IMG/VR virus record: IMGVR_UViG_3300020351_000002
Location: 1 to 52,558 of that record
Reading direction: 5' to 3' (one strand)
Origin: a virus
Lineage: Duplodnaviria > Caudoviricetes
DNA length: 52,558 bases
Shown: positions 3,494 through 27,155 of the stretch, in pieces
Numbering within the stretch: the stretch's first letter is position 1
Layout: each line of letters opens with the position of its first letter
Made by a program: the position numbers and the translations under genes
The notes under the pieces: model-generated
Databases searched by the model: none
The model's input: the letters and a program-made list of their open reading frames with translations, nothing else
Told to the model about the DNA's origin: nothing

Positions 3494-3784
3494 ATGACTG
3501 GATACGCATGGGTGATCACAAGGGACCGTATTGATGGCGGCATGGAAAATGGAACGGTCGGATCATGGAAAGCGGCGCTAAGTGCTGCCGAGATCCGTTC
3601 GAGCGAAGGCGGTGAGCGGTTCTCGATGTACGACGACGACGGGAACTGTTGCTACGAGGGGATCTTTGTAGGCGACGACGATGCCACCGGGTTCGAGCCT
3701 CTCAAAGACTTCGGGATACCGAACGCGGGGTGCACAGAAATACGCTACCGCAACCCGAACACCGGGAAGATGGAGCGTCTCTAA
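3494..3784 (+). CDS. hypothetical phage protein
   Basis: AAGGAG RBS, ATG 3494; YDDDG..YEG and GCTEIRY motifs typical of small phage early proteins. Confidence 0.8.
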   Translation: MTGYAWVITRDRIDGGMENGTVGSWKAALSAAEIRSSEGGERFSMYDDDGNCCYEGIFVGDDDATGFEPLKDFGIPNAGCTEIRYRNPNTGKMERL

Positions 3785-3785
3785 A

Positions 3786-3807
3786 ACTCAACCTTTAAAG
3801 ATTGAAA
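3786..3807. repeat. 22-bp palindromic repeat, copy 7 (ACTCAACCTTTAAAGATTGAAA)
   Basis: 1 nt after a stop codon. Confidence 0.95.
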
Positions 3808-3814
3808 AGAAGAC

Positions 3815-4129
3815 ATGAATAACGAACACAAGCCTAAGCCACGGCGCTCGCCGTGGAGAATCCATCGCCTTGAAAAAGGCTTTGAGATCTTTTGGAGAGA
3901 CGACGGCGATGGGGTCGAGTCTTACACTTACGTCGCAACAGCCCGCCAACACAGCAACGCCAGACGCATAGCCGCTGCGCCTGAAATGCTGGCTGTATTG
4001 GTGGCGGCGCGGGCAAGCATCTCCGACGCCCTGAGCCCAGACCCGTCGACAGACTGGAGAGACAGCCTAACCGACGCACTAGACGCAATTAACGCAACCA
4101 TTAACGACGCAACCAAGGAGGAAGCATGA
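3815..4129 (+). CDS. hypothetical phage protein (NARxIAAAPE-type motif)
   Basis: NARRIAAAPEMLAVL motif is common in phage early hypothetical proteins. Confidence 0.8.
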   Translation: MNNEHKPKPRRSPWRIHRLEKGFEIFWRDDGDGVESYTYVATARQHSNARRIAAAPEMLAVLVAARASISDALSPDPSTDWRDSLTDALDAINATINDATKEEA

Positions 4130-4623
4130 ACTTCGCAACATACCTACCCATACCACCAGACCTTCTAGAGCTTCCCAAAGCCACGGCGATTCGTGGCTGG
4201 ATAGGGCTAGACCACCGACTGCTAGATGGCACACGGATCAGACCGAGAATTAGGACAGCCGTGAACGCTATCGCATGGGCGCAGGCTGGGGGCACGGCCC
4301 CTATGGTTGTCCAGGAAGGCTACGTCACACGCAAGGAAGGCGAGACGACTCACACAGCAGAAGAGTTTGTGGAGCAATACCGTCGATCACGCGAAGAGAT
4401 AGACATTCTGATCTACGAGGTACGAACTGCCGCGGGAGCAAGTATAGGCATACCCGTAGCAAAGGACGCAGCCGACAGCGAAGAGGGCAGGATAGAGCTT
4501 GTCATGTCGATGATTGACAAAAACCTGCTCATTGAACTGGGATTAACGATCACTCTCCTCAGAGAGGAGCGCGGCCCGCGATACAGGGCAAAAAACTTTC
4601 AATCTTTAAAGGTTGAAAGCTAA
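4126..4623 (+). CDS. hypothetical protein reading through repeat copy 8
   Basis: ATGA overlap and AAGGAGG RBS; C-terminal FQSLKVES is encoded by the repeat. Confidence 0.75.
   Translation: MNFATYLPIPPDLLELPKATAIRGWIGLDHRLLDGTRIRPRIRTAVNAIAWAQAGGTAPMVVQEGYVTRKEGETTHTAEEFVEQYRRSREEIDILIYEVRTAAGASIGIPVAKDAADSEEGRIELVMSMIDKNLLIELGLTITLLREERGPRYRAKNFQSLKVES
4597..4618. repeat. 22-bp palindromic repeat, copy 8 (TTTCAATCTTTAAAGGTTGAAA)
   Basis: Read directly. Confidence 0.95.
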
Positions 4624-4702: not shown

Positions 4703-5542
4703 ATGACACCAATAACAAACAAGGGCGTTCGCTCTGTAATTGTCTGGCTCGGTTTTGATCCAGACAGTGACGATTTAATAGACAGCCTCCGATACACCAA
4801 GAGCGGAAGGCTCAGGCGGCTGTTTGGCAAGAACTTCAAGTGTGAGATGGGGGAATTGCAGGCTGTACTGACTGCGGTATTACACCTGTCGCCATGGAAA
4901 GAGGCTGGCTTCAATACCTGCGCCTTTGCTGGGGCATGTGCCGAGGTCTGCATCAAGACGACCGGACAGTGCGTGACAAACACGGCGCTTCGCTCTCGCA
5001 TCTGTAAGACGCTCTACTTCTTTCTATTCCGAGAGGAGTTTCTCGATCAGTTGCGGATGGAGATTCGCCAGCACATTTACATGGCGAAGATCAAGGGCAT
5101 GCGAGCAGCTATCAGGCTGAACGCTACGAGCGACATTCTATGGGAGCGCACGGGGATCATCGATGAGTTCCCAGAGGTGCAGTTTTACGACTACACGAAG
5201 ATCCCTTTAGAGAAGCGCAACCCACCACCTAACTACCACCTGACGTTCAGCCTAAGCGAGGACCCGAAGTCTATGGGTAGGGCCTTGTCGTATCTGGAGG
5301 CGGGACACAACGCCGCGATGGTAGTGCAGACGCTTGACGGGATGAAGAGGGGCGACGCCAAGAGGGCATCCCAAAGTCTTGTGGAGGCTGGCTCATGGAA
5401 CGGATACCCAACCTTCTCTGGTGATAACAACGACATCAGGTTTTGGGATCCACCGGGAAGCTGGATTGTCCTGTACGCCAAGGGACCGGCGACAAAGGAC
5501 ACCTCTGGGTTTGTTCAACGCCTACCAATTATCAACCTTTAA
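4703..5542 (+). CDS. GP88-like phage protein (Cys-cluster, radical-SAM-like)
   Basis: NTCAFAGACAEVC, RLNATSD, QFYDYTK and NYHLTFS motifs characteristic of the phage GP88 family. Confidence 0.8.
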   Translation: MTPITNKGVRSVIVWLGFDPDSDDLIDSLRYTKSGRLRRLFGKNFKCEMGELQAVLTAVLHLSPWKEAGFNTCAFAGACAEVCIKTTGQCVTNTALRSRICKTLYFFLFREEFLDQLRMEIRQHIYMAKIKGMRAAIRLNATSDILWERTGIIDEFPEVQFYDYTKIPLEKRNPPPNYHLTFSLSEDPKSMGRALSYLEAGHNAAMVVQTLDGMKRGDAKRASQSLVEAGSWNGYPTFSGDNNDIRFWDPPGSWIVLYAKGPATKDTSGFVQRLPIINL

Positions 5543-5551
5543 AGATTGAAA
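5530..5551. repeat. 22-bp palindromic repeat, copy 9 (TATCAACCTTTAAAGATTGAAA)
   Basis: Its central TAA is the stop codon of the GP88-like gene. Confidence 0.95.
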
Positions 5552-6648: not shown

Positions 6649-6867
6649 ATGGGTCCAATATCAATGAGTCTAGTAACAGCAAAAAGGATTGAGACATTTC
6701 TAAGCTGGCACCTTGAGGCTGGTACTCCAGAGTTTATGAGGCCCGAAAAGGTTGATAGGGAGTCCGCAAAGAACCTTCTTATTACGATAAGAGAGGCTCT
6801 TAGGGAGCTGGATGAGAACGAGTCTCTGTGGATCGAGATTGGTGTTGGTCCAGAGGGGGCTGGGTAA
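6649..6867 (+). CDS. hypothetical protein
   Basis: Tightly packed in the operon. Confidence 0.7.
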   Translation: MGPISMSLVTAKRIETFLSWHLEAGTPEFMRPEKVDRESAKNLLITIREALRELDENESLWIEIGVGPEGAG

Positions 6868-7034
6868 TGGATTACTGCAACATTACCGAAGTTGAAGAGT
6901 GCGATCAGTGCGACCGAGCCAGCAGTGGCCGAGAGTATGGATTCAAGTGCGAAGCCAATCAGTGCGGGAACTGTGGCGACACCTACCGGGACTGCGAAGG
7001 CTCTTGCAACAACGGCTGCTCAGGGGCTTCCTAA
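6867..7034 (+). CDS. small Cys-rich protein
   Basis: TAATG stop/start coupling at 6865-6869; multiple Cys. Confidence 0.6.
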   Translation: MDYCNITEVEECDQCDRASSGREYGFKCEANQCGNCGDTYRDCEGSCNNGCSGAS

Positions 7035-7043
7035 ACAGAGAGG

Positions 7044-7253
7044 ATGGACAGCGGCATGACAGTTATAGAGCTGGCTGCGTACAGGAAAGCAAAGTACGGG
7101 GACACAGAGGAACGGGATGAGGGTGTGATCTACAAATGGACTTGTTGCGTATGCAAGTGCTTTGCCTACAAACTGCTTGAGGACATCCCAAAAAAGTGTC
7201 CCGTCTGCAGGAGTTATATAGACCAGATAGAGGTTTATGAAGGAGATGAGTGA
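7044..7253 (+). CDS. rubredoxin-like zinc-ribbon protein
   Basis: WTCCVC...KCPVC pattern. Confidence 0.65.
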   Translation: MDSGMTVIELAAYRKAKYGDTEERDEGVIYKWTCCVCKCFAYKLLEDIPKKCPVCRSYIDQIEVYEGDE

Positions 7254-7624
7254 TGCCAGGAAAACTACTGAAGACAGAAGAAGAAGAGGCTGCTTTCGTT
7301 AAGGACTACGAAAAGCTGGTGTCCGTCAAAGACCTTGCTAAGAAGTGGGGGTGTACTCGACAAACAGCGAGCGCATCACTTAAGAGGCTTGGTGTTAAGG
7401 TCCAAAGGCCGCGAGGGAAGGATGCCAATGGCCGAAACTGGAAGGGCGACTACCACCCAATGCTTGGCAAGTGGCCAGACTCTTTGGTCGCAAAGGACAT
7501 ATTGCTAAGGACTGGTAAGAAGGTTTCCAGAGCGGCTGTTTGTCAGGCTAGAAAGCGAAGAGGGATCAAGGCACTGTCAGAAGCACAGCATGAAGCCATG
7601 AAGGCCCGGATAGACGGGGGCTAG
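7250..7624 (+). CDS. putative double-HTH DNA-binding protein
   Basis: SVKDLAKKWGCTRQTASASLKRLG and LGKWPDSLVAK...VSRAAVCQARKRRGI HTH-like segments. Confidence 0.7.
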   Translation: MMPGKLLKTEEEEAAFVKDYEKLVSVKDLAKKWGCTRQTASASLKRLGVKVQRPRGKDANGRNWKGDYHPMLGKWPDSLVAKDILLRTGKKVSRAAVCQARKRRGIKALSEAQHEAMKARIDGG

Positions 7625-7641
7625 ACAGCGAGACCCTCTCA

Positions 7642-7914
7642 GGCTAGTTTCAACCTGTCGCCAAGACGAGGTCTTACCCAAGACCCTCATGGCCTCAAAG
7701 CAGCGTCCACCTGGGCCTTCTCCCCCCTTCCTCCGGGTGGGCGCTCTTTGAAGGCGATACCCCGCAAAGCAAAGCCCCCCATGGCTAAAACCAAGGAGGG
7801 CTTGCCGGTGCCTGCCAACAGTGTGGCGAACCACAAAGGTTCAAATGGCTGGAACCATGCAACAAAGCAGGGGACTCGCAAGAAAACCTGCTTGGTGCGT
7901 AGTAGAAACTAGCC
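7642..7914 (+). ncRNA. candidate structured ncRNA A (~273 nt), class unknown
   Basis: Perfect closing helix GGCTAGTTTC (7642-7651)/GAAACTAGCC (7905-7914) enclosing several hairpins; G-U pairs favour the + strand. Confidence 0.6.
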
Positions 7915-7921
7915 AAAAGCA

Positions 7922-7951
7922 TTGACGAGGGCAAGGTAGTGAGCGTAGCCT
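7922..7951 (+). promoter_or_regulatory. possible promoter between ncRNA A and B
   Basis: TTGACG, N18, TAGCCT. Confidence 0.35.
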
Positions 7952-7984
7952 CGCATCACTGCTCCACCAAAGAGCAGCCATAAT

Positions 7985-8263
7985 TTTCCGTCGTGTGGCC
8001 CCTGTTCAAAGGGCGAAACTGGCGGAGAAAGGACGCGCAAGAGGAGCCCTGCTCCGAGTTTGAACCCACCAGAACACAAGGTCTTATCAAGGCTTATGGC
8101 TTCGACAAAGAAGTCGCAAGGTCAACAGGTAACAACGCACCCCCGCCTGTTAAGTGCTCTGAGGGAAAGACCGCCTATCTAAAAGTGACCAGGATAGGAA
8201 TGGTTGAAACGCGCAGTCCAAAGGTGACCCAACCTAGCAAGGGTCACAGGATGGGGGTGCGTT
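7985..8263 (+). ncRNA. candidate pseudoknotted ncRNA B (~280 nt), class unknown
   Basis: Loop AACGCACCCCC (8134-8144) is perfectly complementary to GGGGGTGCGTT (8253-8263); many local stems. Confidence 0.55.
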
Positions 8264-8284
8264 TGGGGGGTAAGAGTTGGTCGT

Positions 8285-8313
8285 TTGACCTTTGAAACAG
8301 GTCTCTATATTAT
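8285..8313 (+). promoter_or_regulatory. sigma70-type promoter for the recombination module
   Basis: TTGACC (8285-8290), N17, TATTAT (8308-8313). Confidence 0.7.
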
Positions 8314-8427
8314 TGATTTTGTCAGTGTCTTACTGGCGTTGGGGCGTTAGTTATTTAAGGCGGGACAGTTGTTGTCCTGTCCGCAACCAATGATGGCGAT
8401 TGTCATCATTTTTTAGGAGAGAGAGAT

Positions 8428-9423
8428 ATGCCTGCTTATTTTGAAACTGGAATGTACGTTGGTGCCACCCCCTGGCACGGTCTTGGAACCTATGTTGGTG
8501 AAGAGGGTCTTAGGACGAAGGGTGCTTTAAAAAGAGGGGACCTCCTCTGGACTGTGAGCAAGCGGCCTTTGTTTACGGTACCGGAGGGCGGTGCCCTTGC
8601 GGCAGCGTCCATGCCGTCTGTCTGCCTGGAGGACTACCGGGCAATCATGCGGGACACCGACAACTCTGCATATGGGATTGTGAAGAAGGACTACACGCTC
8701 TTCCAGAACGAAGAGATGGGTGCCTTCGCAGACGATCTTATTGACGACGGCAGCCTGCGTATCCACACCGCTGGGTCGCTTAACGGTGGTCGTCAGGTGT
8801 GGTTGCTTGGCAAGGTTGGGTCTACCGAGATCATCCCCAAGGACAAGGTAGACCACTACCTCTTCTTGTATACGGGGCACGATGGGTCTACAGCCTTCCG
8901 CTGCATGTTCACAACGGTGCGTGTGGTTTGTGCAAACACGGCTGCTGTTGCACTGCGGAACTCTCGCGGGCAAAGCGTCAGCATTCGGCACACGAAGAAC
9001 ATGTCGCTTAAGTCTGGCGAGGCTGCTCGTGTCCTGGGCATTTCTCAGAAGGCATTTGCTGAGTCGGATGAGTTCATGCGAAAGCTTGCCGATGTTCCGA
9101 TGCCTCAGTCTGACTGGATTGATTTCTGCATGGAGCTATTCCCCACCCCGGTGGCAGACGAGGACGGCAATGTAAGCAAGCGTGCCATGTCTATCTCGGA
9201 GAACAACCGAAGCCAGCTGACGCGCCTGTTTGTTGGTGGTCGAGGTACTGAGATCCCAGGGGTTCGCGGAACTGGCTGGGCTGCATACAACGCACTAACT
9301 GAGTTCGCTGGCTATCACCGCACATCTCGCGGTGGCAAGGGCAAGCGCTTTGAGTCTCTGATGATGGGCTCTGGTGCGAAGTTCGTTCAGAACGGTACGA
9401 ACATCCTTCGCGGACTCGTTTAG
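8428..9423 (+). CDS. DUF932 family phage/plasmid-like protein (TIGR03299-like)
   Basis: PWHGLG, TAGSLNGGRQVW, HDGS, VRVVCANT, IRHT and GTGWAAYNALTE motifs. Confidence 0.9.
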   Translation: MPAYFETGMYVGATPWHGLGTYVGEEGLRTKGALKRGDLLWTVSKRPLFTVPEGGALAAASMPSVCLEDYRAIMRDTDNSAYGIVKKDYTLFQNEEMGAFADDLIDDGSLRIHTAGSLNGGRQVWLLGKVGSTEIIPKDKVDHYLFLYTGHDGSTAFRCMFTTVRVVCANTAAVALRNSRGQSVSIRHTKNMSLKSGEAARVLGISQKAFAESDEFMRKLADVPMPQSDWIDFCMELFPTPVADEDGNVSKRAMSISENNRSQLTRLFVGGRGTEIPGVRGTGWAAYNALTEFAGYHRTSRGGKGKRFESLMMGSGAKFVQNGTNILRGLV

Positions 9424-9424
9424 T

Positions 9425-9446
9425 TCTCAACTTTTAAAGGTTGAAA
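9425..9446. repeat. 22-bp palindromic repeat, copy 11 (TCTCAACTTTTAAAGGTTGAAA)
   Basis: 1 nt after the DUF932 stop and before the nuclease RBS. Confidence 0.95.
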
Positions 9447-19430: not shown

Positions 19431-22400
19431 CTACTCGTTAAAGCCCTCTTGAAGCTCATCAAAGGCACGCCTTCGTTGCTCCGTCCAATTCGGCCTCATC
19501 TTGTTGTCTTTACTTATCACATCGTTAATCAGGCGTATCTCAGACTTCATTTCGTCAGCCAACTCGATGGCTGCGTAGTTCTGCATTGCCTCCATATCTA
19601 TGGTCGTGTTCTTCCAACCAAGGCCAAACGCTGCAGCTTTCTCAGGCCACGTAGCCCGCACGGTTGGGTCACCGGCATCCATAGCGTATGTGTTGAACGT
19701 GTCGGTGCTGATCTCGGAGTAGATCCTCATAGCCCGATTACCAGGAAACCTTTGGGCCAGGTAGAAAAGCACTGGGTTTTTAGACTTGTAAACCCCCCTT
19801 GTCAGCCCAGTCGGCACCCCGTTTTTCCAAATCGTCTTGTCAACCACTTCGTCTTCGGTGGGAACCCCCATTGCCCACTGATAAAGAGGTGGTGTGTCAA
19901 CAAGCTGCCTTACATTGGTAAGCTCTCTCCACCCCCTGTCGTAGTAAAAGCTTGTTCCTGCCACCCACTCCACAGCGGTGAGTGGCATCGGGTTAAGCCT
20001 CCCCGCAAGGCCAGCAATCGGAGCCGGAAGGGTCTTCGTCTTCTTGGAGAGAAGCTCAACCATCGGTTCCCAGGGAAGTCCAGAGAGAGCGACAAGCCTA
20101 GACTGGTGGTGTCTGGCAAGAATCCTGTACTTCCAAGGGTCTGGAAGGGAAGCGTATTCTCTTTCCGTAAACTGCTGCTTATACACCCCATCCACAAAGC
20201 TCATTATCGAATTGGCCGCCCTTGGGTTCCTCCTAAGCCAGTCGAGTTGGTACTTAAAGTTGCCAGCCTCCCAGGTGTAAAAGAAGAAGACCCTCCGCAA
20301 AACACGTTTTTCAAGTGGGGTTAGGTCGGAGTAGTCACGAAGGGATGCGTTGACACGGGAAAGGGCAACCGAAGCGTCGTCCCCCTTTTTCATGGCAGCA
20401 ACGCCAAGAGAGAGTCTTGCCTGGGCCTCAACAGAGGTGTTGAACATCCCCATCATCTTCAGGTAGTCAGGCATCGTCACGCCGCCAAGGACGGCACCGA
20501 TTGCAGCCCCAGGAGCGCCAGCAACAGACCCAACCGCCGCGCCAATTGCAGCACCAGAGGTCCTGTGGCCAATCGCAGATACTGTCCTGGGTAGGTCTGC
20601 ATGGGAATCCTTCATGGACATCCCTATGAACTTCTCCCACACAGACCCGCCAGCAACCTCCTTGGCTCCGTTCCACCTCTTCCCAAGGCCAACGCCAACA
20701 GCAGTTCCGGCAAACATTCCTGGCGCTGGGCCAAGCCCAAGAGCGGAGGTGATGGCTCCGCCAGCAAACGACCCCGCCGTTGCTGCACCGCTACGAATAA
20801 ACAAGTCTCTAGCGGTTGGGATGGCGTCAAGCGCTGCAAGGCCAGCCTGCTCGTTCATAAAGTCTGTCGAGAGGGGGGCCTCAAAGAAGCCCCGGTCTCG
20901 GAAGAACTGTCGCCACTCCCCCCTCGTCATCACCTTGTCGCCAATCTTCACAGGCACATCAAGGCCAAAGGCAGCGTCACCCTTTCTGAAAGACCCCCAG
21001 ATCATCGCAGCCTGCATCTGGGTAACCGGGTTCAGGGCAGCCCAGCCTAGCTCTTGAGAGGTGGAGACAACATTGGACAGCCAGTTCCTTCCGATGTGGG
21101 CAAAGGCGAGGATGGTTGACTGCGCCTTCATCCACGAGTGCACACCGTCGTAAAGGTCCCCAAACAAAGCCCTGACCCCTTGTTGGGCAACGGGGTCGTT
21201 GTTCCACCTAACATATTCTCCAACCGCCTTGGGGATGTACTTGTCTCGGCCCCTCAATGCGTGCAAGACGTCGTCATCGACAACAACACCCTCCTTCTCA
21301 AGGATGTCTTTGATCTCATCTACCGGCACACCATCAACCATGTTCTGACGAATGATGTCCTCATAGTCCCTTAGCTTTTGCGGGAGCCTCTTTCTAAGGA
21401 CCCCCTCTAGCTCGCTAACCTTGTCGAGTCGCTCAAAGCCAGCCTCATCAGCAGCGGTAGCGGAGCGGAACTCCCTGCCAGCCGGGAAAATATCAAGGAC
21501 GTCTTCGAGAAAGGCGACGTCGGACACAGTCTTGCTGCCCATGTCGTTGTACCTGGTCATAATCACAAACGGGTCTGTCTCGAAAAAGTTGTGTAGCTCG
21601 TTAAAGCCACCCTCTGCCATAACGTCGTCGACTATGTTCTCGTAGTTGACACCCTTCCTTTCAAAGAAGGTACGCATTGTGCTCGCGCTCTTACTCTTTT
21701 GCTTTGCAACCTGCTGCGCCTCCTTGCCAAACACCCCAGAGCTGGCCCGGTCCTTAACGACTGATTCAGCAAACTCCTTCCTGCTGGCCTTATTGATCTC
21801 CCGCATAAGGCCATCCAGCTTCCTTTCGTGCTTGAAGAACTCAGCAGATCCACCAAGGCGTTGACTTGCCCACAAAGGAACCTTGCTTCCCTGGAAGGCG
21901 GCGACCTTTGCTGCAGAGTATCTGTCCGCCATGTGCTTCACATAAGCGCCGATATTGACGCGAGACAGGAAGGCGTTTCTGTCCATCTCCGCGAAAAGGC
22001 CTGCAGCCTTGAGGTCGTCAAACCACTTGTCGAAGAATTGGCGCATGATGCTGGCTGCGCCTACGATCCTCTCAACCGAAGCGTCGTCACCCAGCACTCG
22101 AATCTGCTCGTCTATATTTGCAATAGACTTCTTCGCCTTCGTTGTCTTCTTGCCAGCAGCCTCCAGCCTATCAACAGAGGCAACAAGACGAGCCCTTTGA
22201 GCCTTGAGGTCGGTTACCAGGTTCTTCTTGCCAGCCTTCAGGTTATACAGGTCTGGGTTTTTAACCATTCTGGCGACACGGGCCTGCTCATCTGGGGTCA
22301 TATGGCCAATGGCCTTGGCTATCTCGGCCTTCTTTAGGGCCTCCAGTCTGTTCCAAAACTTGGCTGCAGACTCAGCCAAGGCGTTGACGCTTGAGTCAAT

Positions 22401-25400
22401 CGTTTGAGTGAGGGACTTCCTTTGTTGCTCCGGGGTTCGGAGATCGTAATCAAGATCGTCAAGGGTCTTAGAAAGGTTGGCTAGCTCTGCATCTATGTTG
22501 TCTAGCTTCTCATACAGACCCCTCCTTGTGATGGCCGGTCCTGGTAGGCCGCTCAGCGCAGACCGTGTCTTGGGAATGCTTAAGGCCTGTGCGAGGGGGG
22601 TTGTCCCGACAAGCTCAGACGCCCTGGCCTCGCGGGAAGACAGGGCGCTGTTTAGCTCCGTCTCCAGCTTCCTTCTCATAGCCCGCTTCTTCGCCTGGCT
22701 TGGCTCCCTGGAGATCGCTAGTCGCATTTCTGCCACGCGGGCGGATAGTGCTGGATCCGAAAGCTCCTTTAGAAGCCTGTTCACTTCTTTAGTTGGAAGA
22801 CTGGCAACCTCTGGCTTTGGCCCACGGAGGTTGGTGTTTAGAGCGTCAATTGCGCGGTCAAGTCTCCCCCTTTGGAGGTGGGTCATTTTCTCCATCGGGG
22901 CTATCGAGATTGTGGCAGCCGCTCTTCTGGCATCACCGCGAGCGCGGATGACGGTCGCTTCCCCTTCGATCAAAGCCTGGATGTCCAGCATCCTGTTCTT
23001 GTAAAGCTGTCTCGTTGCCTCAAGGGTGTGGCGGGCTTTGCTGCCAATTGGAACAACAAGATCTTTGTCCGCCACCGCCTTCTCGACCCTTGAGATTGCC
23101 CTTCGCAGGGACGCAAGAAAGCTTGAGGACCTTACCTTCGCGAGGTCAGCCTGGGCTGATCTGATGTTGCGCTGCGCCTTCTTAAACTGCGTCGACTTAA
23201 GTGGGTCTACCCCCTCATCAACTAGCCGCTGCCTAAGAAGTGCCAAATCATCGCTAGCAGCCCTAAGCTTGGACTGAGCCTCTCTTACTTTTCGGAGGCC
23301 CTTCTTCAGGTCTGCCCTGACCCTGCCAATCACCTCAATCGGGTAGTCAAGCAAGACATCAACAGGAACCCTCTTGCCAGCCTTTACAGCAGCCTGCACT
23401 TCGGCAAGGTGCATCTCAGGACTTAGGGTGCTGTCGTCCTTACGAACCTTCCACTGAGGAAGGTCTGTTGCTGCCGTCGTTCGCAGCTTCTCTGGAGCGC
23501 CGAGAGCGGCAGCCTCGTCTGGCCTGAACAGGCGCTCCTCAAACGTCCTTCCTGGGATTGACGGGAGGAACTCCTCTGCCTCTCTAAGAACATCTCCCAC
23601 AAAGCCAGAGATCGGCTGGCTGGGCGTAGGATCTCCAGACTTAAGAGCAAGCCTTTCCTCGATCAACGACAGGGCGCTTTGAATGCGCTGAATCTCTGGC
23701 TGAAACCCGTCAGCCATTCTGGCAACATCAAGCTCTGTGTCCACAGCGATCTTGCCGCCAACCTTTGCGTCATACGAAGCAGTGAACAGGGCAAGTCGAT
23801 CCTTGAGGAGCTTGAGGTTTTGCAGTCGCTCTATTGAGGTAGGAGAACCAGCCCTGACCGCAGCCCTCTGCGCCTCAAGAGACTTAATCTCGTCCGTTGA
23901 AGCCAGGTGGTCCAGAACCGTCCTCTCCAAAGAGTTCAACAGGTCTTTATCAATGACAGGAATGGCGGCAACAGGGCTGTCTGGTCGCGGGGTAGAAAGC
24001 TCGCGAAGAGTGCGAATTGCCTCAAGCACCCCCTCCGCATCTGCCTTCTCAAGCCTGAAGGACGTCGACACCTTTCCCGGCTCAGCCTCAGCAGCCCTGT
24101 ATGGGAGGGTTATCGTGTCCACAACCTTCTCAAGCTTCCTAAGAGAGACTGAGGCCATAAACTCAGCAAGGGCCTTGTCAGACTGCTTTACGCTGTCCCA
24201 CCCCATCTCAGCAAAATGAGAAAGAAAGCTAAGCTCTGTCGGGTCGTCTGTAATCTTTAGAATCTGAAGCTTTGCCTTCGGTAGCCGCTCCCTCAAGTGC
24301 GAAGCAACGCGAGCCCGGTTCCTGAAGGCGTCACCAACCAACCTCCATGTCGCTGGGTGTTCAAGGTGGGCCTTCGGAAGAACCTGTCGGTCCAACCCAT
24401 ACCTAGCGAGAAAGCCTGTCCCTTCTGCTAACTCGGTGTAAATCTGCGGCTTCGCACCAAACCCAACCCTTGGGGTAAACAGAAGTCCGCCCAATGCCCT
24501 TCTTACAGGATCCATCCACGGGACAGCCCTGGCCATGGCGTAGCCAAGGGTGAAGTAGAGGGGCTCAATGTTGTTAACCAAAGACTCTCCCCTGATAGCC
24601 CTGCTCGCCTTGAGAGAGTCCTTCGTGAAGCCCTTGGGGATAGGGGGGAGGATGTCGTCTATGGCCGCCCCAAAACTCTTTCCACCGCGCCCAGCAAGGT
24701 AGGCCTTAGAGGTGGCCCATTCCACAGCACGCTCAGTTAGGGATCGCCTCACGCCAGGGACGATGGATGTGTTTGGAGTGTGCAGAGCTTTTAACTCGGT
24801 TTTTGCACGAGCCACCAGGTCATCCCACTTCGGTTGGCCCTTCAAGCCCCTCTTCAAGAGCTTTTCAAGCACCCCATCCCCTGGGCGCATGGCAGCAACA
24901 CGAGCAGCCTCCCCAAGCTCTCCGTCCGTCGCCCACCTGTAGATGCGAGCCACATCTGGAGGCTTGGTTACATGCGTCACCTTGCCAGAATTATCAACAT
25001 CAACCCTGACCAGGACTTCCCCCTTCTCTTCGGCGGACTTGAGACCCTTGACCCACTCGCCCTCAAAGTAGTTCGCTGGAAGCTTTTCACCCTTAACCCC
25101 GGATTCAAGCCGAAGCTTGTTCACCTCATCCATGGGGATTCTTGTAAGCCTTGAAAGCTCCTCGACGGCAAAGTCTCCAAGAATCCTGACTTCCCCTTTA
25201 AGCGCAGTTGTGGTTGCCTTCAGGAAGTCCTTAACAGCAAGCAGCTTCGACTGTTCTTCAAGGAGTTTCCTGGAATTGCTGTGGCTAAAGATGAAGTTTT
25301 TTAGCTTTGACCTAACGGATGGTACCCCCGTTATCCCAGCACCCTTCTTTGGGGCAGCGCTAAGCAGAGTGTCGTTTGCTTCATCGAATGCGTTAAGCAG

Positions 25401-27155
25401 ACTGGACCGAAGCTCCCTTAGGCTATTGATCTGGGATCCGACCCTCTCTATCTCCTCTGGAATGGTCTCTCCAGAGATCCTGCTCGCCCTCGGCTTGTCG
25501 CCAATGGTGAGTTCATCAACCCTGGCGTGGTGCCTAGAGATCGCCTGATCGACTCGACTAATCTGTTTGTTTATGTCCGAAAGAGGGGCAACCGCATCTA
25601 CCCCGTGGGTTGCAGCCTGATGTGCTGTGATTTTCAACCTGGCCTGATCAGTAAGGCGCTTCGTATGGCGAGTCGCAACCTCAACGCCACGAGCGCTAAG
25701 GTCTAACCCGGTTCCCATTATCCTCGCAGCAGCACCTGCCTTAGGGACAGCCACAGCGCCCTTGCTTAGCGAACCGAGTGCGTTGATTGGGTCTAGCGAA
25801 ATGGCACCACCAAGAGCATAGGCGAGGTGGCCACCAACACTGCCCTCCTCAATGGCCTCCTGCTTAGCCCTCTCAAGCTCTTCGGCGGAAACGCCACCCC
25901 ACCACTTGTTAGCCTCAATAGCTGAACCACCAAGAAGGCCGGTAAGGCCGCCAATAAGGGCTCCCTGTGGGGTTTTTGTTAGGACCGCACCACCAAGCGC
26001 TCCCATACCAACGCCGGTAAGGATTGGGTGGTCATACATTTCGTACCCTGCAGCCGTTAGCTTTTCAGCAATGTCGTGCTCAACCTCTTCAGCGCCAGTG
26101 TCCATGCTTTCAAGCAAGCTCTTTGCATACGCCTGCTCAGAAACGCCTTCAGGGCGAACTCCTCCCGTTGTGGCTATATACAAGGCTGTGTTTGTTAGCT
26201 GCTTGGCGAAATCTTCAAGGGCACCCTTGTCTCCAGCATAGTTCTGCTGGAGCAGAGAGAGCGCCTCTGGAAGTGTTGGATTCTTAAACTTACCTGGGCT
26301 GGCTGCCTTTGCTATTTCCCACCGCCTCAGGTCCATCGCGGTGTTCGTTATGGCGGCAAGAGGCCTCCTTGTGTAGGCATCAAGTACGTCAAAAAACTTC
26401 CACCACCCTTCAGGCTTTGTGTACCCCTCCTTCGTGTACCCAAGCTTGCCAGCGAGTCTTGGGTTCCAGCGACGTATGAAGTCGCCAAGAACCTGGGCCT
26501 TCCTAATCGGATCCCGAGTGCTGTTGTACCGTATGTAGGTCATGTGCCAAAGCCTGGAGGCCTGATCCCGGCTCATCTTCTCTACTTCCTCTGGGTCTCC
26601 CTTCAGCTTGTCTCTAAGGGCTGGGGGTATGTGCTCCCCAATAGCAGCCGCTGGGCCTGTCAGGTCTCCCCTGGTAACAGCTTTGCCCACTGTGTCGAAG
26701 TCATGCCCAGCCAATATGGCCTCTGGCGGATCCTCTGGAAGAGTGTCTGGAACAGAGTAGATTGTTTGCTTTGCACCAGGACCATCAATAGAAATGGTTG
26801 GGCGACCAGAGACAATAAACCCTGGAATGTCCTCAAAAAAGACGTCGTCAGGAAGTCGCTCTGGTGGCATTTCAGCAACACCGTACTTGCCATAGCCAGA
26901 TAAAAGCTCTTCGCTGTACGGAGTGTCGAGTACGTCCTCAGGGACTACGTCTGGCTGCGCGTCTTCGAGCCTTTTTGCCCGCAACTCAGCCAAGAGTTGC
27001 TTGCTGCCAGGCAACAAACCATCTTCTTTAAGCCCAACGTCAACCTTGTTTACGGAGGAAGTGGTGGGCACAGGTGTGGGGGTTACGTCCGGGGCACTAG
27101 CAGCCCTGCTTGCCCGCAACTCAGAGAGAAGGTCATCGACGGTCCCGGCAGGCAT
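19431..27155 (-). CDS. giant internal virion / DNA-ejection protein (2574 aa, large polyvalent protein-like)
   Basis: Size, position after the smaller ejection-type genes, helical A/K/L/R-rich regions, glycine-zipper segments, and DYSDLTPLEK..FFFYTW motif. Confidence 0.8.
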   Translation of the reverse strand: MPAGTVDDLLSELRASRAASAPDVTPTPVPTTSSVNKVDVGLKEDGLLPGSKQLLAELRAKRLEDAQPDVVPEDVLDTPYSEELLSGYGKYGVAEMPPERLPDDVFFEDIPGFIVSGRPTISIDGPGAKQTIYSVPDTLPEDPPEAILAGHDFDTVGKAVTRGDLTGPAAAIGEHIPPALRDKLKGDPEEVEKMSRDQASRLWHMTYIRYNSTRDPIRKAQVLGDFIRRWNPRLAGKLGYTKEGYTKPEGWWKFFDVLDAYTRRPLAAITNTAMDLRRWEIAKAASPGKFKNPTLPEALSLLQQNYAGDKGALEDFAKQLTNTALYIATTGGVRPEGVSEQAYAKSLLESMDTGAEEVEHDIAEKLTAAGYEMYDHPILTGVGMGALGGAVLTKTPQGALIGGLTGLLGGSAIEANKWWGGVSAEELERAKQEAIEEGSVGGHLAYALGGAISLDPINALGSLSKGAVAVPKAGAAARIMGTGLDLSARGVEVATRHTKRLTDQARLKITAHQAATHGVDAVAPLSDINKQISRVDQAISRHHARVDELTIGDKPRASRISGETIPEEIERVGSQINSLRELRSSLLNAFDEANDTLLSAAPKKGAGITGVPSVRSKLKNFIFSHSNSRKLLEEQSKLLAVKDFLKATTTALKGEVRILGDFAVEELSRLTRIPMDEVNKLRLESGVKGEKLPANYFEGEWVKGLKSAEEKGEVLVRVDVDNSGKVTHVTKPPDVARIYRWATDGELGEAARVAAMRPGDGVLEKLLKRGLKGQPKWDDLVARAKTELKALHTPNTSIVPGVRRSLTERAVEWATSKAYLAGRGGKSFGAAIDDILPPIPKGFTKDSLKASRAIRGESLVNNIEPLYFTLGYAMARAVPWMDPVRRALGGLLFTPRVGFGAKPQIYTELAEGTGFLARYGLDRQVLPKAHLEHPATWRLVGDAFRNRARVASHLRERLPKAKLQILKITDDPTELSFLSHFAEMGWDSVKQSDKALAEFMASVSLRKLEKVVDTITLPYRAAEAEPGKVSTSFRLEKADAEGVLEAIRTLRELSTPRPDSPVAAIPVIDKDLLNSLERTVLDHLASTDEIKSLEAQRAAVRAGSPTSIERLQNLKLLKDRLALFTASYDAKVGGKIAVDTELDVARMADGFQPEIQRIQSALSLIEERLALKSGDPTPSQPISGFVGDVLREAEEFLPSIPGRTFEERLFRPDEAAALGAPEKLRTTAATDLPQWKVRKDDSTLSPEMHLAEVQAAVKAGKRVPVDVLLDYPIEVIGRVRADLKKGLRKVREAQSKLRAASDDLALLRQRLVDEGVDPLKSTQFKKAQRNIRSAQADLAKVRSSSFLASLRRAISRVEKAVADKDLVVPIGSKARHTLEATRQLYKNRMLDIQALIEGEATVIRARGDARRAAATISIAPMEKMTHLQRGRLDRAIDALNTNLRGPKPEVASLPTKEVNRLLKELSDPALSARVAEMRLAISREPSQAKKRAMRRKLETELNSALSSREARASELVGTTPLAQALSIPKTRSALSGLPGPAITRRGLYEKLDNIDAELANLSKTLDDLDYDLRTPEQQRKSLTQTIDSSVNALAESAAKFWNRLEALKKAEIAKAIGHMTPDEQARVARMVKNPDLYNLKAGKKNLVTDLKAQRARLVASVDRLEAAGKKTTKAKKSIANIDEQIRVLGDDASVERIVGAASIMRQFFDKWFDDLKAAGLFAEMDRNAFLSRVNIGAYVKHMADRYSAAKVAAFQGSKVPLWASQRLGGSAEFFKHERKLDGLMREINKASRKEFAESVVKDRASSGVFGKEAQQVAKQKSKSASTMRTFFERKGVNYENIVDDVMAEGGFNELHNFFETDPFVIMTRYNDMGSKTVSDVAFLEDVLDIFPAGREFRSATAADEAGFERLDKVSELEGVLRKRLPQKLRDYEDIIRQNMVDGVPVDEIKDILEKEGVVVDDDVLHALRGRDKYIPKAVGEYVRWNNDPVAQQGVRALFGDLYDGVHSWMKAQSTILAFAHIGRNWLSNVVSTSQELGWAALNPVTQMQAAMIWGSFRKGDAAFGLDVPVKIGDKVMTRGEWRQFFRDRGFFEAPLSTDFMNEQAGLAALDAIPTARDLFIRSGAATAGSFAGGAITSALGLGPAPGMFAGTAVGVGLGKRWNGAKEVAGGSVWEKFIGMSMKDSHADLPRTVSAIGHRTSGAAIGAAVGSVAGAPGAAIGAVLGGVTMPDYLKMMGMFNTSVEAQARLSLGVAAMKKGDDASVALSRVNASLRDYSDLTPLEKRVLRRVFFFYTWEAGNFKYQLDWLRRNPRAANSIMSFVDGVYKQQFTEREYASLPDPWKYRILARHHQSRLVALSGLPWEPMVELLSKKTKTLPAPIAGLAGRLNPMPLTAVEWVAGTSFYYDRGWRELTNVRQLVDTPPLYQWAMGVPTEDEVVDKTIWKNGVPTGLTRGVYKSKNPVLFYLAQRFPGNRAMRIYSEISTDTFNTYAMDAGDPTVRATWPEKAAAFGLGWKNTTIDMEAMQNYAAIELADEMKSEIRLINDVISKDNKMRPNWTEQRRRAFDELQEGFNE

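Follow-up and report, generated by a model that had tools for sequence, protein, structure and literature searches.

The window analysed here, a 52,558-nt stretch of DNA, belongs to an uncultured marine podovirus-like phage and contains in its early region a gap without a credible ORF (7625-8427), as the sequence-only reading had noticed. A conserved element begins in this gap, 12 nt past the stop codon of a small HTH gene, and ends shortly upstream of the promoter of a DUF932-exonuclease-Sak4 operon; the neighbouring genes all lie on the + strand. The 124-aa HTH protein has a weak Pfam match (HTH_23, 6.8e-5, under the cut-off) and a weak PHROG match, and homologs of 122 and 117 aa are found upstream of the element in contigs L002 and L003. 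Nucleotide identity to L002 is 72% for the HTH gene, 71% for the RNA and 90-92% for DUF932. Scanned for promoters, 6800-8800 yielded one site only, which lies at 8285-8313 on the + strand; the - strand had none. This site is conserved in the homologs and in L003.

7250-7624, + strand: HTH gene, 124 aa, directly upstream of the RNA and co-inherited with it
7636-8263, + strand: entire conserved structured RNA element (alignment with five homologous contigs, consensus fold, z-scores)
8285-8427, + strand: sigma-70-like promoter (8285-8313) and structured DUF932 leader, outside the RNA

Five metagenomic or viral contigs match this region at 70-75% identity across the entire ORF-free gap. When they are aligned with the window, the conserved block extends over about 7636-8263, not over the 7642-7914 originally proposed; conservation runs on for 350 nt beyond 7914, and co-varying long-range helices reach ~8263. 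The 273 bases first flagged thus appear to be the front part, the 5' two-fifths, of a larger folded + strand RNA of ~625 nt. In its predicted architecture, three hairpins make up a 5' module, and a 3' body of ~500 nt follows that holds at least 12 co-varying helices.

Because the five contigs fall into two near-identical groups, the comparison covers three lineages only, the window counted in (window, L131 and L129), and since no more than these three are independent, every covariation count rests on few events. A fourth lineage, L003, is another phage in which the 5' module (H1-H3) occurs alone. In a search of five related virus records, the element matched only that of L003, and there at the H3 hairpin alone. 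A related phage that is 97% complete lacks the element, which is therefore accessory. Three DNA runs yielded only three variant positions (7850, 7937 and 8058), too few for covariation at the population level. One RNA run of the same sample gave 0 contigs, which counts neither for nor against expression.

Folding of the region exceeds chance. On the + strand, 7642-7914 has an MFE of -120.3, compared with -90.1±5.2 for 200 shuffles (z -5.85, no shuffle as good), and its z on the - strand is -3.73; for the entire element (7636-8263) z is -5.45 on the + and -1.63 on the - strand. Covariation is present as well. The + strand consensus fold has 170 pairs, of which 24 carry compensatory changes, against 7.4±2.0 in 500 shuffles (0/500 reach 24), and six slid controls give 1-5. 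Paired cells make up 97.3% in this consensus structure, which was derived from the same alignment that was used for scoring. Compensatory changes are seen in helices up to 220 nt apart. Across the alignment, 96 G-U cells stand against 8 A-C cells, and this strong asymmetry, together with the strand-specific fold z, indicates that the RNA lies on the + strand.

Nothing in the homolog comparison resembles a coding signature. Mismatches are spread over the codon positions as 55/64/60, without codon periodicity; indels of 4, 5, 1, 1, 2, 1 and 1 nt break the frame, and no ORF is common to the homologs across the element. In the window, 95 open codons follow the HTH stop in frame; coding, or read-through of that stop codon, was rejected, given the lack of a codon signal and the frame-breaking indels. 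A group I or II intron was rejected too. No flanking exons of an interrupted gene are found at the element, and both neighbouring genes are intact: the upstream 124-aa ORF is full length against its 122-aa and 117-aa homologs, and the DUF932 gene is complete, with a promoter of its own.

A scan of the entire window against Rfam 15 at gathering thresholds gave 0 matches, with GOLLD, ROOL, RNase P, tmRNA, group I and II introns and riboswitches among the families covered, and the proposal of a structured + strand non-coding RNA of unrecognised class has held up. At E<=10, the window, L131 and L129 regions gave 5, 6 and 8 matches, all far under gathering scores, and none was common to the three. 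The only weak match to recur, in two of the three sequences scanned, was that of the C/U-rich H3 loop to 6C RNA (L131 22.4 bits, L129 19.5 bits, no match in the window), with scores far under the gathering score of 47. The likeness involves one hairpin only, not the two C-rich-loop hairpins of 6C, and 6C is an actinobacterial small RNA, from another organism and context. Parts of the element seemed to resemble conserved motifs of RNase P and tmRNA; this candidate was dropped, with no covariance-model or ARAGORN match. Over the entire 52,558-bp record, ARAGORN predicted 0 genes for tRNA or tmRNA.

Wider searches gave little. A blastn search with 7600-8430 found no match in 50,697 phage records, and three motif patterns gave 0, 0 and 1 chance matches in 185,579 species genomes. 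The 124-aa HTH protein, used as a query for related loci, led to 30 pattern matches with 0 confirmed. Pattern scans produced nothing beyond chance matches: a 15-mer marked at least 115 stretches, and BLAST of ~120 loci in all matched only L038, which is the same contig as L002. Three candidate relatives (L126, L132 and L133) turned out to be unrelated sequences. Judged by these comparisons, the ~625-nt RNA appears to be a new family that no described family fits, carried by a few uncultured marine phages. To our knowledge, such large and elaborately folded non-coding RNAs are rare in bacteria and phages, mostly without an assigned function, and the element contributes a candidate class from uncultured marine phages. 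The elements of the predicted fold are as follows.

7640-7657, + strand: H1 hairpin (CAGGCU / AGUUUC loop / AACCUG); its 5' half doubles as the 5' arm of the closing helix proposed earlier
7642-7651 and 7905-7914, + strand: closing-helix arms in the window, GGCTAGTTTC and GAAACTAGCC (sequence check; arm pair I1 of the repeat search)
7668-7688, + strand: H2 hairpin, GAGGTCTT (7668-7675) with AAGACCCTC (7680-7688), in the same place in all lineages
7692-7754, + strand: H3, 22-bp hairpin with a pyrimidine-rich loop (alignment)
7769-7805, + strand: H6 hairpin, GCAAAGCCC (7769-7777) with GGGCTTGC (7798-7805), the same fold in three lineages
7823-7834, + strand: GUGG-CGAA-CCAC hairpin, superseding GAACC (7828-7832) with GGTTC (7838-7842)
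7857-7900, + strand: hp10, long hairpin holding AAGCAGG (7865-7871) and CCTGCTT (7887-7893); its loop carries R2a
7899-7937, + strand: joining region, nearly invariant, holding the 3' closing arm (7905-7914)
7938-7960, + strand: core hairpin AGUGAGCG/CGCAUCACU, read by hand from the alignment
7959-7977, + strand: hairpin CUGCUC/GAGCAG, 2/6 pairs compensatory, 100% paired
7983-8030, + strand: Helix 14 hairpin, whose 9-nt loop carries X2 (alignment)
8070-8161, + strand: domain C, three-hairpin junction closed by helix 8070-8077/8154-8161
8169-8205, + strand: domain D hairpin GACCG..CUAUCUA / AGGAUAG..UGGUU, 2 compensatory pairs
8224-8247, + strand: hairpin GUGACCC/GGGUCAC, with a G-C to A-U change in homologs
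8253-8261, + strand: GGGGGUGCG, complementary to the loop segment CGCACCCCC at 8136-8144

All complementary segments listed in the sequence-only reading are present in the window, and most of its inner hairpins (the long one, GAGG/CCUC, GCCC/GGGC and AAGCAGG) are kept in the homologs as structures with changed sequences. The exception is GAACC/GGTTC: GGTTC is part of a segment in covariation with 8058-8066, and the partner of CCAC is GUGG, in a 4-bp hairpin. This hairpin at 7823-7834 reads GUGG/CCAC in the window and GCAG/CUGC in the homologs, with 2/4 pairs compensatory and 100% paired. In H6, a G-C to A-U compensatory change occurs at the base of the GCCC/GGGC stem, and hp10 forms a 10-12 bp hairpin in every lineage from largely different sequence. 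Helix 14 has 14 pairs, two compensatory and four one-sided (98.8% paired). Within domain C, for which separate folds of the three lineages are identical, 4/8 pairs of the closing helix are compensatory, and the inner hairpins contribute 2, 2 and 1. In the core hairpin at 7938-7960, changes seem to be confined to the 3' arm, where all of them would keep pairs or give G-U.

Beyond these local hairpins, the body contains six short segments that can form alternative long-range pairings.

7838-7846, + strand: X1, first Y-complementary copy, pairing with 8058-8066
7872-7879, + strand: R2a, in the hp10 loop, forming an 8-9 bp duplex with Z in each lineage
8004-8010, + strand: X2, second Y-complementary copy, in the Helix 14 loop
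8031-8038, + strand: R2b, second Z-complementary copy, a direct repeat of 7872-7883
8058-8066, + strand: Y, single partner of X1 and X2, occurring once in the element
8211-8219, + strand: Z, single partner of R2a and R2b (duplex energies)

The segments form two tandem modules, X1+R2a and X2+R2b, each complementary to Y and Z, the single partner segments on either side of a stable three-hairpin core. Since Y and Z are single, they are able to pair with only one module at a time. X1:Y comprises nine pairs (3/9 compensatory) and X2:Y seven (4/7 compensatory), and both are 100% paired, X1:Y in three lineages; for the X1:Y duplex 0/2000 shuffles are as good in each lineage. R2a:Z and R2b:Z form duplexes of 8-10 bp in each lineage, with 0-29/2000 shuffles as good, except for the weak R2b:Z of L129 (-10.1 kcal/mol, 174/2000).

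All six segments change in concert between lineages. X1 and X2 have a common core of GUUCAAA and AUUCUAA in the window and L131; in L129 GUCCUG is common to them and they differ beyond it. Energies range from -5.0 to -13.0 kcal/mol in cognate X:Y duplexes and from -0.5 to -6.7 in non-cognate ones, and in all three lineages the cognate duplex is clearly stabler than the cross-lineage one, in silico. For R2:Z, cognate duplexes lie at -10.1 to -15.9 kcal/mol and those of the window with other lineages at -2.9 to -9.9; R2:Z is the same in the two close lineages and sets only the window apart from both. The two near-identical lineages show 52 differences in 636 columns, and in an unbiased ranking the five most divergent 9-column windows between them are Y, R2b, X2, X1 and R2a. 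The enrichment of differences in triad columns (Fisher, 15/54 vs 37/582 columns) is circular, because these columns were chosen for co-varying, and is unusable as evidence. These positions, the fastest-changing between near-identical relatives and still mutually complementary, offer a handle for experiments.

The best overall explanation, to which we give a probability of about 55%, is that the element is a large phage RNA of a new kind into which a switch or a system for self-recognition is built. The RNA would be made as an untranslated 3' continuation of the early transcript. It would work by RNA-RNA pairings that exclude one another, in one of two ways: in cis, as a switch between two states, or as a device for lineage-specific self-recognition that acts on transcripts of a co-infecting relative. 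The likely output would be control over early transcription or over RNA ahead of the recombination operon. Taken on its own, this account of a 3'-continuation transcript that works by mutually exclusive pairing, whether as switch or as self-recognition, is a tentative one. Equally tentative is the more specific proposal of an RNA-only self-recognition system, in which two tandem targets and one two-part effector would be combined within the ornate ~625-nt RNA, and the pairing code would be under diversifying selection, each lineage recognising its own transcripts only. Were this so, the element would determine RNA heteroimmunity or incompatibility in a marine podovirus that seems to be lytic, and its size and architecture would be unprecedented for an antisense immunity RNA, as far as these are known. 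Immunity or incompatibility based on RNA, a feature of a few temperate coliphages and plasmids, would then be found in abundant marine viruses as well.

Some observations sit uneasily with one form or the other. A 625-nt ornate RNA far exceeds what a switch of this sort needs, and an independent promoter stands between the RNA and the operon to be controlled. An immunity role has no support from lifestyle: of the 64 or more ORFs that reach 70 aa, 43 were scanned, and none of these matched an integrase, repressor or partition family.

The closest functional parallels are the immunity RNAs of temperate elements. Pairing of the P4 CI RNA with seqA/seqC stops expression of the downstream replication genes (PMC4825925), and the c4 antisense RNA of P1/P7 controls the antirepressor Ant (PMC8201110). 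In both systems a long untranslated phage transcript carries two same-sense copies of a sequence along with one segment complementary to each of them; here X1/X2 face Y and R2a/R2b face Z in the same two-to-one arrangement. The pairing segments of the element also show lineage-specific compensatory differences, in silico. Citron and Schuster (1990) are said to have described the two-block design and P1/P7 heteroimmunity by compensatory changes. The differences are considerable. The P4 CI and c4 effectors are small processed RNAs of temperate elements, whereas the segments here are embedded in a 625-nt fold; the order here is target, target, effector, and the parts in P1 and P4 follow another order; the 43 scanned ORFs hold no lysogeny genes, and a separate promoter precedes the downstream operon.

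Among the alternatives the strongest, although we regard it as rather unlikely, is an ornate stand-alone RNA of the GOLLD/ROOL kind: a fixed 3D particle, possibly a homo-oligomer, ribozyme or RNP scaffold, whose repeated complementary segments would be tertiary or intermolecular contacts and not a regulatory switch. Like GOLLD and ROOL, the element is several hundred nucleotides long, phage-encoded and accessory (the 97%-complete relative lacks it) and without a known biochemical function; it has many co-varying helices, three-way junctions and long invariant, seemingly unpaired stretches. Its 3' closing arm reads CUAG in one lineage and UUAA in another; both are palindromes, like those of symmetric kissing loops, although this is a single event. 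In GOLLD, ROOL and OLE, covariation that was first taken as tertiary proved to represent intermolecular bridges (bioRxiv 10.1101/2024.12.08.627333), and here, too, covariation hints at contacts that a simple nested fold does not contain. However, Y and Z are each present once and face two X and two R2 copies, so that half of the copies would be unpaired. The triad segments also evolve at a much higher rate than the other helices, and contacts of a purely architectural kind seldom do so. The element matches no GOLLD or ROOL model in Rfam and has a different fold. In phages and prophages, tRNA genes are frequent neighbours of GOLLD and ROOL, and none lie near the element. We know of no two-copies-versus-one-partner arrangement described for either RNA.

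That 7642-7914 is an independent RNA of ~273 nt, closed by the 10-bp helix GGCUAGUUUC/GAAACUAGCC, is improbable. The helix is perfect in the window, as first described, and belongs to its MFE fold whether the 273 nt or the full element is folded; the homologs still pair 9/10 positions, two of them as G-U. Across the alignment, seven of the ten pairs are invariant, two have one-sided changes (to G-U), one is broken in 5/6 sequences and none is compensatory. Forcing the helix in homologs costs ~20 kcal/mol relative to their MFE, and their 5' arm instead forms a local 10-bp hairpin, H1, which is found in the five homologs and of which the window keeps 5/6 core pairs, with a C-A mismatch. In L003, which lacks the 3' closing arm altogether, H1 is retained through a compensatory change from G-C to A-U. 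Conservation 350 nt beyond 7914 also contradicts a closed unit, and helix 7838-7846/8058-8066 crosses the closing helix. Of the other hairpins of the 5' module, H2 differs in its inner stems among lineages (GGGCC/GGCCC in L003). H3, which includes the long-hairpin arms noticed earlier (7695-7714 and 7733-7751), is paired at 98.5% of cells; one of its changes is compensatory and two are one-sided. It is kept in L003 with further compensatory changes, and its U-G pair, conserved in 6/6 sequences, marks the + strand.

Similarly improbable is a replication pre-primer or origin like ColE1 RNA II, in which alternative folds would decide on a persistent hybrid of a G-rich 3' end with DNA. ColE1 RNA II is a folded transcript of ~550 nt in which alternative pairings decide function and fast-evolving complementary segments set specificity, and the element shares its size, the alternative pairings and the fast-evolving complementary segments; G-runs at the 3' end (8253-8272) fit, as do the position upstream of recombination genes and the iteron-like repeats that L003 has at the same place. 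Against this, no antisense promoter was found on the - strand in the 6800-8800 scan, GC skew shows no origin feature at the element, and the DnaB helicase gene maps to the opposite end. A near-complete relative does without the element, which therefore cannot be the group's essential origin.

Least credible of all is the view that there is no RNA but a DNA-level element (protein sites or ssDNA structure), a decayed gene or a gene in another code, for which the sequence conservation at the base of the H3 stem, as at a protein site, the 22-bp palindromic motif common in the early region, with a half-site at 7648, and the 95 open codons past the HTH stop could be cited, and against which stand the compensatory changes over up to 220 nt, the G-U to A-C ratio (96 vs 8), the strand-specific fold signal (z -5.45 vs -1.63), the frame-breaking indels without codon periodicity and the loss of the half-site in homologs that keep the motif elsewhere.

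Several smaller observations concern individual segments. The element holds long invariant stretches that are apparently unpaired; one of them, 7899-7937, is a long run of invariant columns without consistent pairing across all lineages. A consensus-fold helix that would involve part of it (7900-7911/7946-7957) was rejected, with 5/11 pairs broken in the window. Also dismissed was a pairing between the C-rich loop of H3 and the ribosome site of DUF932, which is purine-rich; it was seen by eye only, spans 5-6 bp and is not kept in L003. The 9-bp complementarity of 8253-8261 with 8136-8144, a candidate pairing, is invariant and thus gives no covariation signal; one pair is broken in L002. The 22-bp palindromic DNA motif is common in the early region, and homologs keep it elsewhere; the half-site TTTCAACC noticed at 7648-7655 is present in the window, and the homologs read TTTCAGCC there. 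A further half-site, GGTTGAAA at 8202, shows a G-to-A change in homologs because it forms part of a compensatory pair in the domain D hairpin. A 9-bp pairing of 7647-7655 with GGTTGAAAC at 8201-8209, possible in the window, was discarded, as the homolog G-to-A change is compensated within hairpin 8169-8205 instead.

The gap without a credible ORF reported by the sequence-only reading (7625-8427) is real, and it is the sole large ORF-poor gap within the early plus-strand gene block of this record (52,558 bp, completeness rating 97%). Its surroundings are as follows.

7250-7624, plus strand: helix-turn-helix (HTH) ORF, 124 aa, upstream of the gap
8285-8313, plus strand: sigma-70-like promoter (TTGACC, 17-nt spacer), conserved, about 20 nt past the 3′ end of the element described below
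within 8285-8427, plus strand: leader of the DUF932 gene, about 115 nt with hairpins, 3′ of the promoter
8428-9423, plus strand: DUF932 gene, downstream of the gap, followed by a PD-(D/E)XK exonuclease and then a Sak4-like protein

The alignments show that the gap holds a conserved RNA-like element on the plus strand, about 625 nt long, structured and multi-domain, that belongs to no known family. Conservation extends from about 7636-7640, with invariant and variable blocks alternating, as far as about 8263; beyond that, similarity to the window is lost. The 273-nt unit first proposed (7642-7914) was given a 3′ limit that lies inside the most conserved part; that this unit is the actual molecule is improbable. 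The class went unrecognised in that reading, and indeed the window as a whole has no hit to any Rfam family at gathering thresholds; when the region was scanned permissively, in the window and in two homologs, only scattered noise came up. A narrow search of open-access text, which is not proof of absence in print, found no prior description of such an element. The predicted architecture comprises the following features.

7640-7657, plus strand: hairpin H1 (5′ module)
7668-7688, plus strand: hairpin H2 (5′ module)
7692-7754, plus strand: hairpin H3, 22 bp, pyrimidine-rich loop (5′ module)
7769-7805, plus strand: hairpin H6
7823-7834, plus strand: small GUGG/CCAC hairpin
7857-7900, plus strand: long hairpin with repeat R2a in its loop
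7899-7937, plus strand: nearly invariant joiner
7938-7960 and 7959-7977, plus strand: two hairpins
7983-8030, plus strand: helix 14, with segment X2 in its loop
8043-8055, plus strand: GGAGC/GCUCC hairpin
8070-8077/8154-8161, plus strand: closing helix of a three-hairpin junction, 4 of 8 closing pairs compensatory
8169-8205 and 8224-8247, plus strand: two hairpins
8253-8261, plus strand: terminal G-run segment, complementary to the loop at 8136-8144 (candidate pairing, invariant)

A DUF932 protein search returned eight viral loci, among which L002 carries the whole gap at 72% identity and L003, from a more distant phage, the long hairpin region only; the other six have no gap and no similarity to it. 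The conserved base of the long hairpin, used as query in one metagenome scan, gave six stretches, namely four new homologs (L127, L128, L129 and L131), the contig of L003 again and one chance match. More motif scans of viral and species-genome collections found no further genuine relatives. The family as known here consists of the window and five contigs (three full length, two cut by contig ends) that form two near-identical groups, A (L131, L128, L127) and B (L129, L002); identity is 92% between A and B and about 71% between either group and the window. The comparative basis is three lineages, with L003 in addition for the first 130 nt of the element. Contigs from three other marine DNA runs over 7560-8460 hold only three variant positions (7850, 7937 and 8058), each also variable between lineages. 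Just past the RNA 3′ end (about 2272-2345), L002 shows a tandem duplication of about 36 nt, and its terminal G-run segment carries a single U-to-G change; L129, otherwise near-identical, lacks both.

The predicted fold of the flagged 273 nt is significant, with z −5.85 on the plus and −3.73 on the minus strand (200 dinucleotide shuffles); for the whole element the values are −5.45 (matched by 0 of 20 shuffles) and −1.63 (by 1 of 20). The RNAalifold consensus for the plus strand contains 170 pairs, with standard pairs in 97.3% of 961 cells, although it was derived from the alignment on which it was scored and is biased in its own favour. More robust measures are the count of doubly changed pairs, 24 versus 7.4±2.0 in column shuffles (0 of 500 reach 24), and six controls in which the partner is displaced by 1-3 columns, which give 1-5. 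Covariation is thus seen in 24 of 170 pairs across three lineages. The predicted pairs include 96 G-U/U-G cells versus 8 A-C/C-A cells, an asymmetry expected only if the plus strand is what folds; a purely DNA-level element has small odds. The raw energy of the alignment fold is lower for the minus strand (−182 versus −165 kcal/mol), which is attributed to the G+U-rich composition, and the minus-strand fold uses 181 G-U cells. A coding signature is excluded: mismatches by codon position number 55/64/60, the indels are of 4, 5, 1, 1, 2, 1 and 1 nt, and no ORF within the element is common to the lineages.

All complementary segments listed for the 273-nt unit were found in place or 1-2 bases off. 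Its perfect 10-bp closing helix (7642-7651/7905-7914) is likewise present, and part of the window's minimum free energy structure, but it has no compensatory pairs and is broken in five of six sequences: seven pairs are invariant, two change on one side to G-U, and one is a C-A mismatch in those five. Forced onto the homologs, this helix carries a penalty of about 20 kcal/mol; there the 5′ arm folds locally into the 10-bp hairpin H1. In L003, H1 shows a G-C to A-U change and the 3′ closing arm is absent. Moreover, the well-supported helix 7838-7846/8058-8066 crosses the closing helix. The latter may be specific to the window, or one of several alternative pairings; judged by these comparisons, it is not what defines the molecule.

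The alignments also show a double arrangement in which two copies face a single partner. When helices paired in all sequences were searched for systematically, 8004-8010 with 8059-8065 came first (7 bp, 4 compensatory) and 7838-7843 with 8061-8066 second. Segments X1 (7838-7846) and X2 (8004-8010) therefore have one common partner, Y (8058-8066). X1 is in a single-stranded stretch, X2 in the helix 14 loop, and each is complementary to Y. Their common sequence is GUUCAAA in the window and AUUCUAA in group A, and Y is altered accordingly; the two copies in group B do not agree completely (GUCCU-G for X1 and GUCCUGG for X2). Similarly, the direct repeats R2a (7872-7879) and R2b (8031-8038, just 3′ of helix 14) each form an 8-10 bp duplex with a single downstream segment, Z (8211-8219). 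The R2 and Z sequences of the window are wholly unlike those of groups A and B, and the window's Z can pair with R2a if one base is bulged, or with R2b if a different one is.

Compared with 2000 partner shuffles, 0-37 were as good as or better than the actual duplex energies in 11 of 12 combinations; R2b:Z of L129 is a weak exception (174 of 2000). Cognate X:Y duplexes reach −5.0 to −13.0 versus −0.5 to −6.7 kcal/mol across lineages, while R2:Z sets the window apart from both groups without separating A and B. Of 636 columns, 52 differ between A and B, and the five most divergent non-overlapping 9-column windows are Y, R2b, X2, X1 and R2a. Because at least three segments change together at several positions, and faster than the rest of the molecule, this is unlike drift in an ordinary helix and suggests that the pairing code itself is under selection. 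Since one Y and one Z serve two modules, the X1/X2 and R2a/R2b pairings are mutually exclusive; forced X1:Y and forced X2:Y lie only 3-6 kcal/mol apart in predicted energy in every lineage.

The element may be transcribed as a 3′ continuation of the early operon, as it lies on the strand of its neighbouring genes and starts 12 nt past a stop codon, and no promoter was found for it; a scan of 6800-8800 on both strands gave 8285-8313 as the sole promoter-like site. Its core, flanked by Y and Z, would pair exclusively with one module or the other and work through that choice. A regulatory or self-recognition role like that of P4 CI or P1 c4 is a tentative reading, with a probability of roughly 0.3. 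The two-block design of c4 and its role in heteroimmunity were reportedly described by Citron and Schuster in 1990. The nearest known logic is that of phage P4 CI RNA, which pairs with two complementary sequences, upstream and downstream of itself, on an untranslated transcript and thereby halts replication-gene expression (PMC4825925). The c4 antisense RNA of P1/P7, whose existence and role are covered in PMC8201110, is the other near relative in logic. Weak points of the regulatory reading are the three lineages only, the independent promoter that separates the RNA from the operon downstream, and the lack of lysogeny genes (no integrase, repressor or partition families) among 43 ORFs compared with PHROGs and/or Pfam. 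Alternatively, and nearly as likely, the element could be a GOLLD/ROOL-like architectural or assembling RNA, in which X/Y and R2/Z would be tertiary or intermolecular contacts; such contacts are reported for GOLLD/ROOL RNAs in bioRxiv 10.1101/2024.12.08.627333. An RNA II-like pre-primer is improbable.

The module is a mosaic. Set against groups A and B, the window's DUF932 gene has 90-92% nucleotide identity (four-fold sites 80-88%), and the adjacent RNA and HTH gene are only 71% and 72% identical to those of L002, L129 and L131 (HTH four-fold sites 22/39); this difference suggests recombination near the promoter. The HTH gene of L003 is homologous at 43% identity. L003 keeps H1, H2 and H3 with further compensatory changes, and iteron-like repeats replace the 500-nt body: a short-repeat array at 3665-3830 (TAGCCTAC and CTACTAG types) lies ahead of the same promoter, where the RNA body would be, and looks like iterons or operators. 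The HTH gene and the 5′ module travel together, the body being an add-on. In the DUF932 leader the last hairpin (8390-8409), which L003 keeps with compensatory changes, looks terminator- or attenuator-like: a U-run comes after it, immediately ahead of the ribosome site of DUF932. The element is accessory, as a related phage record (52,763 bp, 97% complete) has no copy. Relatives without the RNA (L004 3287-3868, L007 487-1110, L008 3253-3879), that is, the 52,763-bp record and two others, have a strongly acidic ORF directly upstream of DUF932 (193-208 aa, 44-47 D+E versus 7-10 K+R), whose composition recalls DNA-mimic anti-restriction proteins.

As to the phage itself, portal and adaptor resemble those of SU10/P22-type podoviruses, and the large terminase is at most 28% identical to cultured-phage counterparts. 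No tRNA or tmRNA genes were found, and a 2,574-aa ORF and the next, 849-aa ORF (19431-27155, minus strand) have no PHROG match at E≤0.001.

The early region also carries a 22-bp palindrome, TYTCAAY-N-TTTAAA-N-RTTGARA, in 10 copies versus 0 expected by chance, all within the first 9.5 kb and at gene boundaries.

Palindrome copies: 43-64, 1267-1288, 1890-1911, 2175-2196, 2373-2394, 2820-2841, 3786-3807, 4597-4618, 5530-5551 and 9425-9446

A half-site had been noted at 7648, overlapping the 5′ arm of the closing helix; neither it nor the one at 8202 belongs to this palindrome. The same motif occurs in the homologous contigs, and the phage of L003 has its own variant in four copies; the motif resembles an early-region operator or processing site. 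The copy at 9425-9446 overlaps the TTG (9441) listed as the exonuclease ORF start. A few bases past this TTG there is a purine-rich ribosome site and then an ATG, which is probably the true start.
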